Positions 15,649 through 22,286 of a stretch of DNA of 31,179 bases are shown here, piece by piece (the stretch's first letter is position 1; each line of letters begins with the position of its first letter). Origin of the DNA: Candidatus Thorarchaeota archaeon (GTDB taxonomy: Archaea; Asgardarchaeota; Thorarchaeia; Thorarchaeales; Thorarchaeaceae); the NCBI GenBank assembly GCA_020348985.1, contig CP070761.1, positions 2,680,830-2,712,008 of the forward strand, written 5' to 3'. Made by a program: the position numbers and the translations under genes. The notes beneath the pieces were generated by a model, which made no database searches, had not been told where the DNA came from, and saw only the letters and a list, made by a program, of their open reading frames with translations.

Positions 15649-17355
15649 GTGGCAAACCCCGCCAATCCACTAATAGTACAGTCAGACAAGTCGGTCTTAT
15701 TGGAAGTCGACAATCCACGCTATGAGGACGCTAGGGACTCACTTGCTCGCTTTGCGGAGCTCGTCAAGAGCCCCGAGTACGTTCACACTTATAGAGTCAC
15801 ACCCCTAAGTCTTTGGAATGCCGCAGCCATGGGCATGAGCCCAAAGGAGGTCGTTGTTGCCCTTGAGGAGTTTGCCAAGTATCCAATCCCTAGCAACATT
15901 GAACGAGAGATAGTCGACTACATGAGTAGATACGGTCAGCTTTCACTCTTCAAGGAAGGCCCTGACTTGCTTCTTCTGTGCGAAAGCGAAGACCTAGCTG
16001 AAGAGGTCTGGCAGAGCACCAAGGTTCGTGAATTCTTGCTACAAAGAATCGACGAGACAACAATGCGAGTAGATCCCGCGTTTAGAGGTTCGATAAAGCA
16101 TGCGTTACTCGAACTTGGACATCCCGTTGAAGACCTCGCAGGTTATGTCGAAGGGGAAGCACTTGAGTTTGATTTACGCCAAATGACTCTTGAAGGAAAG
16201 GGGTGGGGTCTCAGGAAATACCAAGATGAAGCAGTCGCTACTTTCTATGCTGGCGGTGGAGTTCGAGGCGGGTCAGGAGTCGTTGTCCTACCGTGCGGGG
16301 CAGGCAAGACAATGGTAGGCATGGGTGTGATGGAGACCCTCCAGACATCAACACTCATTCTCTGCCCAAATGTCGTTGCTGTACGCCAATGGATTGCCGA
16401 GCTTCTCGACAAGACAACCCTAACTCCAGAACAGATTGGTGAGTACACCGGAGACATGAAGAGTGTTCGTCCTGTGACAGTTGCCACCTATCAGATTCTG
16501 ACATGGAGAAGGAAGAGAGATGCAGCCTTCGAACACTTCAAGATATTCGAAGCTAGAAACTGGGGCTTGATTATCTATGACGAAGTTCACCTTCTTCCAG
16601 CACCAGTTTTTCGAGTTACAGCTTCAATTCAGGCAACGAGGCGATTAGGTCTTACTGCTACGCTTGTGAGAGAGGACGAAAGAGAGGAGGAAGTCTTCAG
16701 TCTAATCGGCCCAAAGCGATTCGACATGCCGTGGAAATTGCTTGAAGATCAGGGATGGATAGCCACAGCGATATGTTATGAGATCAGAATCGAGCTTCCT
16801 GATTCACTTCGGAGGAAGTATGCGCTGGCTGAGGATCGTAGGAAGTATCGAATCGCGGCGGAGAATCCAGTCAAATTGGAACTTCTGAAGGAGATCGTAG
16901 AGTATCACCGGGACGACAATCTACTTGTCATTGGGATGTATCTTGATCAGCTTCACATCATCGCCGAAGAACTCGATGCTCCTTTGATTACTGGAAAGAC
17001 AAACAATGCGGAACGTGAACGGCTCTACAACCTGTTTCGAGAGGGCGTTATCAAGTGCCTTGTTGTGTCAAAGGTTGCTAATTTCGCCTTAGACTTGCCA
17101 GATGCAAACGTTGCGATACAGGTCTCAGGAACTTTTGGCTCAAGACAAGAGGAGGCACAGAGACTCGGCAGGATTCTGAGGCCCAAGACGGACGGTAGCT
17201 TCGCAAGATTCTACTCAATCGTCACAAAAGACACACGTGACATGGATTTCGCTGCAAAACGTCAACTTTTCCTGACTGAACAGGGCTATCAGTATGTCAT
17301 AGCTTCTGAGGATGAAAAGGTCTGGGAGATTCCTCCAGAATCCTATTTCAGCTAG
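15649..17355 (+). CDS. xpb: XPB/Rad25/Ssl2-family SF2 DNA helicase/translocase with XPB N-terminal domain
   Basis: PLIVQSD N-terminal domain, LPCGAGKT, DEVH, GLTATLVRED (RED motif) and QEEAQRLGRILR. GTG 15649 follows GAGG; the ORF track start is 15610. Confidence 0.92.
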   Translation: MANPANPLIVQSDKSVLLEVDNPRYEDARDSLARFAELVKSPEYVHTYRVTPLSLWNAAAMGMSPKEVVVALEEFAKYPIPSNIEREIVDYMSRYGQLSLFKEGPDLLLLCESEDLAEEVWQSTKVREFLLQRIDETTMRVDPAFRGSIKHALLELGHPVEDLAGYVEGEALEFDLRQMTLEGKGWGLRKYQDEAVATFYAGGGVRGGSGVVVLPCGAGKTMVGMGVMETLQTSTLILCPNVVAVRQWIAELLDKTTLTPEQIGEYTGDMKSVRPVTVATYQILTWRRKRDAAFEHFKIFEARNWGLIIYDEVHLLPAPVFRVTASIQATRRLGLTATLVREDEREEEVFSLIGPKRFDMPWKLLEDQGWIATAICYEIRIELPDSLRRKYALAEDRRKYRIAAENPVKLELLKEIVEYHRDDNLLVIGMYLDQLHIIAEELDAPLITGKTNNAERERLYNLFREGVIKCLVVSKVANFALDLPDANVAIQVSGTFGSRQEEAQRLGRILRPKTDGSFARFYSIVTKDTRDMDFAAKRQLFLTEQGYQYVIASEDEKVWEIPPESYFS

Positions 17356-18353
17356 GAGAGAAGCTTCTGGAGCCAAGCAAGCTTCCGGTCAAAGTATGTA
17401 GCCACTTCGTTCTTGCTAATGCCCTTCAATAGAATTGCTTCATGCCTACTGAGACCATAGTTACAGAGCCATTCAATGCTCCATGCCAGAACGGAGATTA
17501 GAGCAGCACACGCAAGCATATCCCAGTCATCTGTAGGAAGACGCGTGTCCGTCAGGCGGGTTTCGGGTGCTAGGTCCTGCGAGGAAGGGTGTTGTGTGTA
17601 TAAGTACACAATATCATATCTGTAATCCCCGTAAGCACAACTCTCCAAATCAAGAAGCTTGACATTCTCTCCGATGACAATGTTGGACTCTTGAAAATCT
17701 CCGTGCATCAACCCCGGCATCCAGGAGATCGAATCGGCGTATCTTTGAAGAAACCTGTCGACACTCTCTTTCAGCTGTTTCCATTGGGTTTTCGTTCTCT
17801 GTGAGGAGCTTGGCAGTTCAGCCACTAGAGTGCTGGATCTGACCAACATAGACTCCACAAACTCTGAAACATTCGAAAACTCTTCCACACCCGCGGGGTG
17901 AAGGTCAGAAAAGAGCGATAGTGTTGCCCCAACCTTCAACGCCTCGTCATCACTTAGTTCTCCAAGAGTCGTCACAACCTCTCCCTTGATGAACTCGAGG
18001 ACAATGAATGGGGTCGATTTGTCATCGCCAAGCCTTCCTTTGAAAATGGGCTTCGAACACAACCCATGCTTTGAAATCTGATGGTGCATGATCCAGGTGT
18101 ATTCATAGGGGTTCTCGTCATAACGAATGCTCAGTCCTGGCAACTTGAGAACATAGTCCTCATCTTCCGAAGCAATCTGCAAATTGATGTTGGACCACCC
18201 ACTATCGATCACTTGAAGCTGCATGCTATGATCAAAACCAGGCCAAGCATCGCCTATCAGCTTGGTGATCCTATCGAGATTATGCCCATGTATTGTGGGA
18301 ATACTCTTTGCCGACAACCGGATTCGAACCTCTGCACTAGTTCTGGCCCTCAT
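17352..18353 (-). CDS. Aminoglycoside phosphotransferase/choline kinase-like family protein
   Basis: SGWSNIN, YVLK, HGDFQESNI, LLDLE and GD.RYD motifs. Confidence 0.8.
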   Translation of the reverse strand: MRARTSAEVRIRLSAKSIPTIHGHNLDRITKLIGDAWPGFDHSMQLQVIDSGWSNINLQIASEDEDYVLKLPGLSIRYDENPYEYTWIMHHQISKHGLCSKPIFKGRLGDDKSTPFIVLEFIKGEVVTTLGELSDDEALKVGATLSLFSDLHPAGVEEFSNVSEFVESMLVRSSTLVAELPSSSQRTKTQWKQLKESVDRFLQRYADSISWMPGLMHGDFQESNIVIGENVKLLDLESCAYGDYRYDIVYLYTQHPSSQDLAPETRLTDTRLPTDDWDMLACAALISVLAWSIEWLCNYGLSRHEAILLKGISKNEVATYFDRKLAWLQKLLS

Positions 18354-19470
18354 TTCCGATATATGTCAATGAAGCCAATAATGCTGTCAAATGAATGAAG
18401 GGGTTTCTGGCCTGAGTCAATCTGTGGTCAATCTCTGCCAGCCTTTCAAGAGCGGTTCTGACAACTTCGGGTTCAAGTTGGCGCCTCACTAAATCGCGTT
18501 GAATCTCCAAAGAGACTTCACTGGCCAAATAACCCTCCAGAGCAAGAAGGTTTCTCAATGTCTTTCTTGCCTTGAGGAACTTGCCGGAGAACGCGTGGGA
18601 CACCATCTCGTGCACTTCTCTAGTAAGTGTGGTCTGATTGACCTCGTACACTGTTCTTTCTGTAACGCTGGAGGTTCCCGCAGCTGCTACTTGAAGCAGG
18701 TTGATTGCCCTTCGAAGGTCACCAAGGGACTCTTTGGCCACAGCAGCAACACCACCATCGTCAATAGTGATATTCTCGCTTGATGCTATCTTGGCAATAT
18801 GTTTCTCGATTTCCTCCAGACTTGGGGATTGGAACCTCAGAATCAACGACCGTGAGAGAATGGCGGGACTCCATCCTGAGAGTGTATGTGTTATCAAGAT
18901 GAATCGGGTTACGTCACTGTAGATTTCCATGGTCCTTCGTAGTGCCTGTTGCATGTTATTGTCGAGAGCGTCGGCTTCTTCAAGAACAAGAATCTTGACA
19001 GGTACCTCGCTGAAGGTGTAGGTAGACGCAAACATTCGAATTGCAGTCTGTAGCATCTGACTTCGGTTGGGTTCTTTACTCTGTCCACGAGTCTTTAATG
19101 CTGCTTTAGCTTCTCTGTAGACTAGCGACATGTACTCGTCGAGTTCGGTTCTTTCGGACTGGTCGAGTTTCGCCAAGTCTTGAAGACTTCTCTTGGCTTT
19201 TGAAACAGGCATTTCGCGAATGTCACGGACGTTTAGTAGCTTGTAGTTGGATGCATAGTCATCTCCAAGCGCTTCTCGTGCATATACTTCCACAGCGGCT
19301 GACTTGCCCGTCCCCGAAGGGCCGTAAAAGATCATGTTGGGGAAGCTCTGGTTCTGTGTGAGACTCTTTAGATGTGATAGTACTGTATCCTGACCCACGA
19401 ATTGATCCCATGATGTGGGTCGGTATTTCACACTCCAAAGAGAAGGCTCCAATGGTAGCACCAATCGCAT
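18337..19470 (-). CDS. Replication factor C small subunit-like AAA+ ATPase with an internal insertion
   Basis: WSVKYRP, FYGPSGTGKS, LVLEEADAL, QQALRRTME, ILSR and GDLRRAINLLQ; RFC C-terminal collar region. Confidence 0.85.
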   Translation of the reverse strand: MRLVLPLEPSLWSVKYRPTSWDQFVGQDTVLSHLKSLTQNQSFPNMIFYGPSGTGKSAAVEVYAREALGDDYASNYKLLNVRDIREMPVSKAKRSLQDLAKLDQSERTELDEYMSLVYREAKAALKTRGQSKEPNRSQMLQTAIRMFASTYTFSEVPVKILVLEEADALDNNMQQALRRTMEIYSDVTRFILITHTLSGWSPAILSRSLILRFQSPSLEEIEKHIAKIASSENITIDDGGVAAVAKESLGDLRRAINLLQVAAAGTSSVTERTVYEVNQTTLTREVHEMVSHAFSGKFLKARKTLRNLLALEGYLASEVSLEIQRDLVRRQLEPEVVRTALERLAEIDHRLTQARNPFIHLTALLASLTYIGNEGQN

Positions 19471-19656
19471 GTCATCTACTCAGCTAATAAGTGCACCCCA
19501 ACCATCGAACTGTTTTGGGCAGTGGAATAATGTTTCTTTTAGACTAGCTCTTGGAACACGTGTTCCAAGTCAATTCGTTCATCTCCTTAACCAAACCAAA
19601 AGCATTATGTGCAATCCTCATCACGGCGCTTGGTTGCGAAACTCATTACCCGGGAT

Positions 19657-21381
19657 ATGAACTCAAAGATGCCAAAAGAGAATCTTGAGGCAGAACTCAA
19701 GCATACGTTCAGAGAAGATCTGGTTGTTGCCTGTCAATACTGGGGTGTCGACATGAGCACCAGTCAATCAGGCGAGTCTCTCATCAAGATGCTTGCTGAG
19801 AAAATGCGAAATGATGAGTTTCGACTACGCATGTTCCAGACCTTCACGCCTCGGGAGATTGACCTCCTTGGAATGCTAGCACTCAGCGGAGGTGCAATGA
19901 GCTACGATCGACTGAAGCCATTCAGAAAGCTGTATAGCTATGGTCAATTGAATCAGACAGAGAAAGATCTTAGAAAGAAAGGCATTATCATTCGTCGAAT
20001 GATGTCAAGATTGACAGATACAGGTCGTGAGGTCGCTGAATTTAAGATACTCGAGTTCTTTCTCCCCCATTTGATTGAATACTTCACAGCCAAACCAACG
20101 CCCAGTCCAGATAAGCCTGAGAAGGCTAGGAACTTCGTTGACGAACGTGACACAATACTCGTGGACATGCTGCTCTTAGTATCCTATTTGGCGAAGAACG
20201 AAGTGAACATGACAAGTGCATGGGAGTTCCCAAAGAGAGAAGCAGAACACATTCAGGAAGCAATGTCGAAGTCTAGTGAGGAACGATTTGATATAGTTCA
20301 GAAACTGGCCCGCAAGTCCGGAGCGTATCGCATTGTGGAGGAGGACCGCGTTGTCCCCGGGCATGTTCAGGCACTTTTCATGGGTCGTCAGGATCTGGTT
20401 TCCCGTAGGCTTCTGCTTTCATCTCTAGGACGCACCCGTGCCATATGGGCAACTCCGGACCAGCCTACTGAGTATACCCTCAACCTAGCAATCTGTCGAC
20501 TTCGAAAGGCAACTCAAGAAGAGTGGATCAGCATAGAAGAGATGCGCGACTGGATTAGGAGTGAGCTATTCGTTGAGAATCAGCCCTTGAAGTGGATTCA
20601 GGTTGATGAAGAGCGAGTGAGAATGGCCATGGAGACCCCGATACTTTTGGGCCTACTCGAAGGTGCCTACAAGGGTCGAAGACTGCTCGCTGTTCGTCTT
20701 ACACAGGTTGGAGAGAGTGTCATTTCTTCGGAGGAATTGACCGAAGAGGATTCAGAGGAGACCTTCTTTGTACAACCTAACTTCGAGGTCACTGTCTTCA
20801 CTTCAGAAATGAATTACTACAAGCTGTATCTGCTGATGCTCTTCACGGAACCTGTCAAGACTGATGTTGTTAGTACATTCCGCATTACTGACAAATCCAT
20901 ATTTCAAGCAATAGAAGTTGGATACAGAGATCATGAACTCCTCGAGTTTCTGGAAACAGAGAGCTCGAAGCCAATTCCCAAGAACGTGAGCAGATCGATA
21001 GCAGACTGGACCTCTCAATCCACATTTGCTACAGTATCAACTGTGACACTCTTTGAGACAGAATCGGAGAGGGATTTTGAAGACTTGATGCTCATTGAAG
21101 ACTTCAAGGAGAATGTAGTACGTCAGATAGGCAAGAATGCCGCGGTCATGAAAGGTGACTCAGAGAAGCTCATTGAGGATCTGAAAAGACATAAAGTTCA
21201 CGTCCGACAATCTGGCAAAGAAGCATCAGAGAGTACACCGAGTGAAAGGGCCGGATTAGCAGAGCAGATGCTGTTGTATGGGGACCAATCTGGAGTTGAT
21301 GCTTCGGGTGACTGCATTGGTTGTCCAGCATTGCAATCATGCAACAAGGCAATCAGACGAAAGCCTCGGGCTGTGAGATGA
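19657..21381 (+). CDS. XPB/Ssl2 N-terminal (Helicase_C_3)-domain protein without ATPase motifs; TFIIH p52/Tfb2-like architecture
   Basis: FVQPNFEV...FRITDKSI..A...G....ELLEFLETESSKPIPKNV...IADW near the C-terminus; no Walker motifs. Start uncertain (19609, 19657 or 19669). Confidence 0.75.
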   Translation: MNSKMPKENLEAELKHTFREDLVVACQYWGVDMSTSQSGESLIKMLAEKMRNDEFRLRMFQTFTPREIDLLGMLALSGGAMSYDRLKPFRKLYSYGQLNQTEKDLRKKGIIIRRMMSRLTDTGREVAEFKILEFFLPHLIEYFTAKPTPSPDKPEKARNFVDERDTILVDMLLLVSYLAKNEVNMTSAWEFPKREAEHIQEAMSKSSEERFDIVQKLARKSGAYRIVEEDRVVPGHVQALFMGRQDLVSRRLLLSSLGRTRAIWATPDQPTEYTLNLAICRLRKATQEEWISIEEMRDWIRSELFVENQPLKWIQVDEERVRMAMETPILLGLLEGAYKGRRLLAVRLTQVGESVISSEELTEEDSEETFFVQPNFEVTVFTSEMNYYKLYLLMLFTEPVKTDVVSTFRITDKSIFQAIEVGYRDHELLEFLETESSKPIPKNVSRSIADWTSQSTFATVSTVTLFETESERDFEDLMLIEDFKENVVRQIGKNAAVMKGDSEKLIEDLKRHKVHVRQSGKEASESTPSERAGLAEQMLLYGDQSGVDASGDCIGCPALQSCNKAIRRKPRAVR

Positions 21382-21449: not shown

Positions 21450-22286
21450 TTGGTGAGAGTCATGCCAGAAGCCAATAATGAGCCAGGCGCAATCATGAGT
21501 TTTATTCAGGACTATCGAATGAAGATGCTGATTCCTGAGCTACTTGTAGTCTTTGGAGTGTGGTATTTACTTCCAGAGTCTCTCACCAGTAACGTCTACT
21601 CTTTTCTTGGATGGCCATGGCTGCTCATTCTACAGCCTATATTCATGGTTCCAAGTGGAATACTTGCCCTAGTTACCGCATTCACTCTGCACGGCATCTA
21701 TCCATTGGACAACTACCATGAAGGGAAGATTCCTGAACTGCCCAAAGCTGCAGTTGCAATGATTGTTGTGTCACTTGTACTACTGCCACTTCTTGTCCTT
21801 TTCCAAATGATTGGTTACTACATGACAGAAGCAACAGAATATTTCTCCCGAAATCCACTATGGGAACGATTCGAGTCATTCGGGGATCTGTTCTTCTATG
21901 CTGGTGCGATGTTCTTTGTGGGGCTCCAGTGGTGGCTTTTTATTCCAGTATTCCTGCTTTCCCAGGGAATCGACGGGATTCACAAAGTTGCACATCACGA
22001 GACCTCAAGTGAGAGAATCACTATGGCATTCTACTTCCTTTGGGTAATCTCCATGCCCTTCTTCTTTGAGCCGGTTGAGATTATCGCGATGGCCGCTCTC
22101 TCAATTCCTGCTTTTGCATTCTATTCATACATCCGACCCTACTACACATACGTAACTGCAATTCACACTGTCAGCTTCGCGGTCTTGGTTCTCGTGACGT
22201 TTTTCATCGGCCCCTATCTGCCACTAGTAGGTCAATGGTTCCCGGGCTTCATTCCGCCGCACGAGCCACCCAGGATCTGGTGGTGA
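21450..22286 (+). CDS. Multi-pass membrane protein of unknown function
   Basis: About seven hydrophobic segments in 278 aa; no family recognised. Confidence 0.7.
   Translation: MVRVMPEANNEPGAIMSFIQDYRMKMLIPELLVVFGVWYLLPESLTSNVYSFLGWPWLLILQPIFMVPSGILALVTAFTLHGIYPLDNYHEGKIPELPKAAVAMIVVSLVLLPLLVLFQMIGYYMTEATEYFSRNPLWERFESFGDLFFYAGAMFFVGLQWWLFIPVFLLSQGIDGIHKVAHHETSSERITMAFYFLWVISMPFFFEPVEIIAMAALSIPAFAFYSYIRPYYTYVTAIHTVSFAVLVLVTFFIGPYLPLVGQWFPGFIPPHEPPRIWW

Follow-up and report, generated by a model that had tools for sequence, protein, structure and literature searches.

A probable p52/Tfb2-like partner linked to the long-form XPB translocase of a Thorarchaeota archaeon

We analysed a window of 31,179 nucleotides (contig CP070761.1 of assembly GCA_020348985.1, positions 2,680,830 to 2,712,008) from a Candidatus Thorarchaeota archaeon, which carries a gene for the translocase XPB and, 2.3 kb away, a gene for an XPB partner whose modelled fold makes it most likely a remote, full-length homologue of p52/Tfb2, a subunit of eukaryotic TFIIH. 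Named Thorarchaeota give the closest matches of both proteins, which identifies the host as an Asgard archaeon, and the host genome is a single contig of 3.16 Mb with a completeness of 86%. The XPB gene (15649..17355, plus strand) starts with GTG and encodes a long-form, ERCC3/Rad25-type SF2 translocase of 568 amino acids, identical to the called protein P0276. The partner gene (19669..21381, plus strand) encodes 570 amino acids and is annotated in databases as "helicase-associated domain-containing protein". Between them lie an APH-like and an RFC-like gene, both on the opposite strand. The open reading frame (ORF) of the partner extends from 19609 to 21381 on the plus strand. The original prediction, made from the sequence alone, had placed its start at 19657, which is also an ATG, but the ATG at 19669 is preferred on the basis of the 570-residue orthologues and of a nearly invariant methionine at residue 21. 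We number the partner (P0002) by the 590-residue translation of the whole ORF, in which the starting methionine is residue 21. The translations confirm the sequence strings quoted in that prediction, the place of the gene and its description as lacking an ATPase, and Pfam and NCBIfam scans of the partner found no ATPase domain.

The XPB matches NCBIfam NF045503 with 860.8 bits (cut-off 610) over profile positions 1-547 of 548, and is thus a full-length member of this equivalog; it matches the rad25 family TIGR00603 with 345 bits. Pfam recognizes Helicase_C_3, ResIII and ERCC3_RAD25_C in it. The Helicase_C_3 family (PF13625, 117.7 bits) marks the N-terminal domain at residues 21-148 of P0001 (15670..16053, plus strand), and the RecA1/RecA2 helicase core follows at 16210..17322 on the same strand, with ResIII at residues 201-353 and ERCC3_RAD25_C at 378-571. 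The motifs LPCGAGKT, YDEVH and VRED are intact in the translation. The protein aligns with human XPB along its full length (5-552 with 22-572 of 8ebt_A), and in phmmer it scored 276-287 bits against human and yeast XPB versus 148 bits against the XPB of A. fulgidus. In TFIIH, the N-terminal domain is the part of XPB that binds the clutch domain of p52 (PMC6422496, PMC7708078).

Helicase_C_3 domains are found in the whole single-contig genome only in the XPB gene and the partner gene. BLASTP aligned XPB 45-133 with partner 409-503 at 32% identity (E = 6e-9), which bears out the prediction that the XPB N-terminus matches a domain in the C-terminal part of the partner; this clutch domain, the equivalent of p52 MD2, had been noted at about 20760-21015 and spans 20749..21024 on the plus strand (P0002 381-472). 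PF13625 matched partner residues 407-470 with 46 bits (cut-off 34.2), and all 32 aligned relatives of the partner match the same family. The modelled clutch was superimposed by VIA on human XPB 70-164 with Z 16.1 and a root-mean-square deviation (rmsd) of 1.4 Å over 92 residues. Among Thorarchaeota orthologues the clutch is the best-conserved part of the partner, and in a profile alignment to human XPB its invariant residues Tyr 407 and Thr 427 correspond to Phe 99 and Thr 119. These two human residues are sites of disease mutations, and Thr 119 is conserved in the p52 clutch as well (Greber 2019, PMC6422496). On sequence comparison, the XPB N-terminal domain and the partner clutch are paralogs.

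Four domains make up p52, namely NTD (the N-terminal domain), MD1, MD2 (the clutch) and CTD (the C-terminal domain) (Kappenberger 2020, PMC7708078; Greber 2019, PMC6422496), and our model of the partner follows the same order. The model was calculated with AlphaFold2 without templates for residues 21-590, from an alignment of 32 relatives, and had a mean pLDDT of 81.8 and a pTM of 0.71. In a Foldseek search of the PDB, the best 19 matches were all p52/Tfb2 chains (E from 3.8e-11 to 5e-5), among them 9pd3_D (3.8e-11), 6nmi_D (2e-9), yeast 7zs9_2 (5e-9) and the Chaetomium p52/p8 crystal structure 6trs_B (1e-8), and most of these alignments covered about 500 columns, or almost the full length of p52. 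VIA found model residues 38-511 collinear with residues 25-461 of human p52 (9pd3_D, Z 14.3, 387 residues aligned), and aligned 261 of 289 residues with 7nvv_2 (Z 13.8). The likeness to p52 that had been predicted therefore reaches beyond the clutch. We considered whether the p52 matches could be an artefact of the clutch alone, and rejected this, as XPB chains in the same Foldseek search aligned over only about 150-180 columns, with E values of about 1e-4 or weaker, versus about 330-530 columns for p52/Tfb2. The winged-helix-like N-terminal array (19780..20700, plus strand), with H-H-H-E-E repeats at 61-127, 162-230 and 267-344 in the model, corresponds to p52 NTD and MD1, being collinear in VIA with p52 residues 25 to about 300; its units also resemble the winged helix-turn-helix (wHTH) repressors of the ArsR/SmtB/MarR type (VIA Z 10-11.6). 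The Pfam Tfb2 family (PF03849) matched 16 of the 32 relatives of the partner at E ≤ 0.01, and two of these from outside the Thorarchaeota passed its cut-off (38.9 and 38.4 bits versus 34.5).

The clutch is followed by a small CTD (21046..21189, plus strand) that resembles both p52-CTD/p8 and the DRD of XPB. A stand-alone model of P0002 468-545 (pLDDT 84) shows it as a beta-alpha-alpha-beta-beta-alpha unit, which contains TLFETESERDFEDL (P0002 488-501). Nearly all of the first 25 Foldseek ranks for this model were p8/TTDA, Tfb5, Tfb2-CTD or p52 (E 0.28-2), and in VIA, with 48,161 chains, the DRD region of human XPB came first (Z 5.9), then Tfb5 (5.1), followed by Tfb2 CTD residues 447-508 in 3dgp_A and 5fmf_W (Z 4.1, rmsd 2.8 Å) and p8 (4.1). 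The earlier proposal that the segment after the clutch resembles the p8-binding region of p52 thus holds at the level of the fold, with weak statistics (E 0.28-2, Z 4-6). Because the CTD resembles the XPB DRD and the BLASTP alignment of XPB with the partner runs on into the CTD (P0002 468-545 versus XPB 105-165), a two-domain unit, NTD-DRD in XPB and clutch-CTD in the partner, appears to have been duplicated as a whole, and the fold matches hint that p8, the p52 CTD and the XPB DRD are of one origin. In a joint tree, XPB N-terminal domains and partner clutches were reciprocally monophyletic (99), so the duplication is older than the sampled diversity. This reciprocal monophyly suggests that the NTD-DRD unit of XPB and the clutch-CTD unit of p52 arose from one duplication; on this view, p8 would be a detached copy of the final domain.

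Beyond the CTD, the partner ends in a region specific to Thorarchaeota (21190-21381, P0002 528-590) with an order-specific cysteine motif, C569-x2-C572-P-A-x2-S-C578 (21313..21342, plus strand), that was modelled with low confidence. Cys 569, Cys 572, Pro 573, Ala 574, Ser 577 and Cys 578 are invariant in 22 Thorarchaeota orthologues. Most orthologues have a fourth cysteine in an "HKC" motif, where the protein studied here and its closest relative have Val 530 (HKVH). The tail may bind metal as a zinc knuckle with a histidine ligand. Relatives outside the Thorarchaeota have WYL or other modules in its place.

To follow the pair among the Asgard archaea we used a sample of 151 genomes, with the family of the window (f1, n = 26), its sister family (f2, n = 1) and 25 other families (n = 123). 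Both the partner and long-form XPB occur in 26/26 genomes of f1 and in 1/1 of f2, always with XPB 4-9 kb upstream on the same strand, and the neighbourhood that the original prediction had suggested comparing is conserved in both families (27/27 genomes linked; local gene order from loci L028-L030). Neither the Helicase_C_3 domain nor the partner was found in any of the 123 genomes of the other 25 families, and within the sampled Asgard archaea the pair is restricted to the Thorarchaeota order of the window. Homology, architecture, co-occurrence and linkage are in this way observed features of the pair. The DUF790 family (Bax1, PF05626) had no match in the single contig of this genome, its controls having matched in three archaea, and Bax1 was present in 3 of 26 f1 genomes versus 73 of 123 genomes of other Asgard families. 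Four other Asgard genomes that we inspected have a short XPB, which in three cases is the immediate neighbour of Bax1. One Thorarchaeota genome has both, a long XPB with the partner (G075:C1:745798-747498) and a short XPB followed by Bax1 (G075:C4:8970-11319) (L115, L121). In the order of the window, XPB and the partner largely stand in for the short XPB-Bax1 pair.

Elsewhere among prokaryotes the linkage can be closer. On the Thermoplasmata chromosome CP070726, XPB overlaps a 406-residue partner gene in one operon, and on the Chloroflexi contig JACRMK010000070 XPB is followed by two partners. A second clutch-domain ORF was present in 39 of 80 XPB loci from named genomes, and a clutch-domain gene lay downstream on the same strand in 32 of the 59 loci whose downstream flank is 3 kb or longer, a count that is a lower bound given a hidden Markov model biased towards Thorarchaeota sequences. 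For Actinobacteria, where XPB had been said to sit beside a similar protein, this was so in Microbacteriaceae (L108, a 741-residue ORF directly upstream), with a weak case in Phycicoccus (L110). A planctomycete protein of 1249 residues (P0504, from a 679-kb contig of a metagenome-assembled genome) is a putative XPB-partner fusion, with a complete XPB at 16-563 and a partner-type last winged helix and clutch at about 1077-1206 (hhalign probability 99.2%). Several clades are common to the trees of XPB and of the partner. Modular partners were seen in P0131, P0141 and P0142, and in the operon of L027 (8476-12884) XPB is followed by two different partners.

A complex prediction for full-length XPB with P0002 355-535 scored 0.58 (three runs, 0.57-0.60), the best control scoring 0.10, with at least 98% agreement of contacts between runs and a partner pLDDT of at least 75. 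The score lies past a mark that 58 of 80 solved complexes and 2 of 110 mismatches pass, in a range (past the mark and up to 0.60) that holds 7 of the 80 solved complexes and both mismatches, so that we graded the support as weak. A similar complex, TFIIH, has already been solved, and the pass may reflect likeness to it instead of binding. From the model together with the co-occurrence, the operons and the putative fusion, we infer that XPB and the partner bind each other and most likely form a heterodimer, as the original prediction had proposed.

Several observations weigh against reading the partner as a p52 homologue that works with XPB. Superimposed globally on p52, the model has an rmsd of about 20 Å and a different arrangement of domains; this is because the inter-domain angles differ, and these angles vary among p52 structures too (PMC7708078). 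The partner itself matched Pfam Tfb2 with 16.6 bits (E = 0.0038; cut-off 34.5), over profile positions 270-356 only. A single-sequence phmmer search of the PDB sequences returned only a chance ferritin-like match (E = 0.36), and a profile of 22 Thorarchaeota partners matched XPB N-terminal domains there (E 3e-3) and no p52 chain, so the link to p52 comes from the fold and from the Tfb2 matches of the relatives. Each structural match of the CTD is insignificant by itself (E > 0.1, Z < 6). The genome yielded no p8-like small protein that could complete a dimer of the p52-CTD/p8 type, the Tfb5 control being uninformative, and a search with a CTD profile found no free-standing copy of the partner CTD, a weak negative. 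XPB and the partner do not form an operon in Thorarchaeota, two opposite-strand genes lying between them, and some relatives of the partner adjoin no XPB (P0132).

We nevertheless consider it probable that the locus encodes a p52-like partner, with winged helices, a clutch paralogous to the XPB N-terminal domain and a p8/DRD-like CTD, that forms a heterodimer with XPB. If TFIIH is a guide (PMC6422496, PMC7708078), beta-sheets of the clutch and of the XPB N-terminal domain would pair, and clutch and CTD together would brace RecA2, leaving the RecA domains competent for ATP hydrolysis and translocation. The partner could in this way tune the ATPase and translocase activity of XPB. The winged helices might hold the motor on DNA or bring in further factors, for example in repair; both the regulation of the ATPase and the role in DNA repair are suggested here by analogy only.

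A profile search of 1.84 billion representative sequences found 2197 relatives of the partner, 601 of them at E ≤ 1e-10, whose alignments mostly span the last winged helix, clutch and CTD. Many of them have an additional clutch or modules of the WYL or SWIM type. Long-form XPB, at 55-70% identity, was found in more than 600 bacterial loci, in Chloroflexota, Planctomycetota, Bacillota, Acidobacteriota, Spirochaetota, Actinomycetota and others, and among archaea outside Asgard the module is scattered (Thermoplasmata, Methanophagales). The two proteins differ in rate, the Thorarchaeota XPB being about 64% identical to those of Chloroflexi and Thermoplasmata and the partner about 20-33% identical to partners from outside the Thorarchaeota. 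The pair exemplifies an XPB-partner module that is widespread among prokaryotes and looks old.

Phylogenetic trees of XPB and of the partner were built from bacterial and archaeal homologs, and the XPB trees were rooted with short Asgard XPBs. A search with the helicase core for longer proteins, aimed at eukaryotic XPBs, yielded only prokaryotic XPBs with N-terminal extensions. Phyla were intermixed in the XPB tree, and the Thorarchaeota sequences were never nested within a bacterial clade. Under LG+C20 PMSF, f1 and f2 formed a Thorarchaeota clade (SH-aLRT 97) that was sister to the bacteria (98), with the Methanophagales inside the bacteria. The root was unstable, falling inside f1 under LG+G4 and at the Thermoplasmata group under LG+C20 PMSF, and since it is unreliable we name neither a donor nor a direction of transfer. 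In the partner tree the Thorarchaeota clade was well supported, and its position and the backbone were poorly supported. The original prediction had held that nesting of both genes inside bacterial clades, as a recent transfer, would speak against ancestry; no such nesting is seen for XPB, so ancestry is not refuted on this ground.

That prediction also described the two genes as a TFIIH core module with a bearing on the origin of TFIIH. The core module is not supported: the families of Tfb5 (p8), Tfb4 (p34, PF03850) and Ssl1 (p44, PF04056) had no match in the genome, the controls having matched nowhere or only below the cut-off. Of the TFIIH core we found XPB, the p52-like partner and two XPD/DinG-like proteins, with p8, p44 and p34 undetected against these weak controls and p62 unsearched. 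The bearing on TFIIH origin is not supported either, the pair being confined to one order among the 151 Asgard genomes, widespread in bacteria and no more eukaryote-like than its bacterial counterparts. In phmmer, the bit scores against yeast and human XPB were 287/276 for the Thorarchaeota protein, 296/270 for a Chloroflexi protein and 273/259 for a Thermoplasmata protein, all far above the scores of these three against the XPBs of A. fulgidus or Sulfurisphaera. TIGR00603 scores were likewise 345 bits for f1, 389 for f2, 361 for Chloroflexi, 359 for Leptospira and 360 for Brevibacillus.

The history of the pair can be read in several ways. The Thorarchaeota genes could have come down by vertical descent from the archaeon that gave rise to the eukaryotes, in which case the XPB-p52(-p8) sub-module of eukaryotes would stem directly from this pair, p8 having later split from the CTD of the partner and the other sampled Asgard archaea having lost the pair. 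The host is an Asgard archaeon, its XPB scores 276-287 bits against eukaryotic XPB versus 125-148 bits against classical archaeal XPBs, the partner is modelled with the complete p52 architecture, and the Thorarchaeota XPBs fall outside the bacterial clade. Even so, we regard this descent as very unlikely: Helicase_C_3 and the partner are missing from all 123 genomes of 25 other Asgard families, where mostly a short XPB stands beside Bax1; bacterial XPBs are equally eukaryote-like by phmmer and TIGR00603; the Thorarchaeota partner falls below other prokaryotic partners on Pfam Tfb2; p8, p34 and p44 gave no match in the genome (weak controls); and the trees cover prokaryotic sequences only. An ancestry of TFIIH in this Asgard pair is not supported, and eukaryotic inheritance of the module from Asgard archaea is not shown by these data. 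We mildly favour a horizontally exchanged repair or defence cassette, which the ancestor of the Thorarchaeota acquired or donated and which has no special bearing on eukaryotes beyond deep homology. The patchy spread (one Asgard order, scattered archaea, more than 600 loci in many bacterial phyla at 55-70% XPB identity) agrees with exchange, as do the mixing of phyla in the XPB tree, with Methanophagales among bacteria, and the partner architectures, whose variation (WYL, SWIM, double clutch) is typical of mobile or regulatory modules. Exchange must nevertheless be squared with a separate Thorarchaeota XPB clade outside the bacteria (SH-aLRT 97-98) that shows no recent donor, with a pair that is fixed in 27/27 sampled genomes of the order in conserved synteny, and with a window in which no signature of a mobile element or a recent transfer was seen, the content of guanine and cytosine being flat at 0.47-0.49.

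A different question is whether the partner acts on XPB at all, as it could be an autonomous wHTH DNA-binding regulator whose only tie to XPB in Thorarchaeota is a domain of common ancestry, without binding. Its N-terminal units do resemble ArsR/SmtB/MarR repressors, two opposite-strand genes separate it from XPB, and some of its relatives stand alone while others have ligand-sensing WYL domains. Against such a regulator speak its strict co-occurrence with long-form XPB (27/27), the operons and one putative fusion in other prokaryotes, the clutch as its best-conserved part, and a complex prediction that, though weak, was above all controls. We consider such a regulator unlikely, and retain the p52-like partner in a heterodimer with XPB as our interpretation.

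The gene order common to f1 and f2 is XPB (plus strand), sometimes a KaiC-like gene, an APH-like and an RFC-small-like gene (both minus), the partner (plus) and a 278-residue membrane protein. In the window, the APH-family kinase-like gene is at 17352..18353 (minus strand; Pfam APH 64.9 bits), and the RFC-like gene, at 18337..19470 (minus strand), is a divergent paralogue of the RFC small subunit, with Pfam Rep_fac_C and AAA matches and an NCBIfam RFC small subunit score of 259.6 bits, under the cut-off of 303. In both families the APH-like gene stands between XPB and the partner (L028, L029, L030), and the RFC-like gene is kept at the same place in L028 and L030 (APH and RFC spanning L028 2801-5173 and L030 3098-5534). 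Functionally these two neighbours may belong with XPB and the partner, for instance as a repair factor of the clamp-loader type. A gene for a KaiC/RadA-like ATPase stands beside XPB in some Thorarchaeota genomes (L029 2636-3466, minus; L030 7901-8755, plus), and in L030 this neighbourhood contains, in addition, a 156-residue ORF and a gene for an alpha/beta hydrolase. The multi-pass membrane protein of 278 residues, which has no Pfam family, is encoded 3' of the partner gene at 21450-22286 (plus strand), and in both families it has this position (L028 7137-7973). There are many repair genes in the neighbourhood of the pair. The genome has two XPD/DinG-like (DEAD_2) helicase genes (G000:C1:2748271-2748777, L033; and 96192-96755, L034), one of which is about 36 kb past the end of the window.

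Among known systems, the XPB-containing operons of bacteria and archaea whose second gene is annotated as helicase-associated are similar in both components. XPB belongs there to the same equivalog, NF045503 (853-888 bits in all tested), at 55-66% identity, and this is also the type of the Mycobacterium XPB of Balasingham 2012 (PMC3353954). The partners belong to the same Helicase_C_3 family with the same core of last winged helix, clutch and CTD, but carry WYL or SWIM modules where the Thorarchaeota protein has its cysteine tail, and some bacteria have two partners where Thorarchaeota have one. In those operons the partner abuts XPB, whereas the APH-like kinase and RFC-like genes intervene in Thorarchaeota. 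The archaeal XPB-Bax1 pair (DuPrez 2020, PMC7672443) is alike in combining an XPB motor with a dedicated, linked partner and a presumed role in DNA repair, but the Thorarchaeota XPB has a long N-terminal domain where the XPB of that pair has a bare DRD, and its partner has no nuclease domain. Reviews up to 2026 (PMC13024598) describe archaea as having no TFIIH-like assembly, with XPB working with Bax1, and a 2026 review of the Asgard archaea has XPB-Bax1 only. Homologues of p52 were not found in bacteria by Balasingham et al. (PMC3353954), and our full-text literature search brought up no paper describing a p52 from Asgard archaea or from any other prokaryote.

ATP is not needed to open archaeal promoters, and a transcription function is therefore not expected for the Thorarchaeota pair. 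Two further features set the pair apart from XPB-p52-p8 of TFIIH (Ssl2-Tfb2-Tfb5; PDB 6NMI, 7NVV, 6TRS, 8EBS): its genes are not co-transcribed and stand in a genome where p8/Tfb5, p34 and p44 went undetected (weak controls), and its partner is about 110 residues longer than p52, with a cysteine-rich tail. The Thorarchaeota XPB has the same N-terminal domain as its eukaryotic counterpart, and the modelled partner has the domain order of p52 with a CTD of probable p8 fold (weak statistics). The clutch conserves the residues corresponding to human XPB Phe 99 and Thr 119, and it may pair with XPB as in TFIIH, a pairing to which the prediction lends weak support. If these likenesses are correct, a full-length p52-like partner accompanies XPB in many bacteria and in one order of Asgard archaea, the XPB-p52 pairing would be older than the eukaryotes, and the prokaryotic pairs could provide simple, soluble two-protein systems for studying how a clutch controls the XPB motor.

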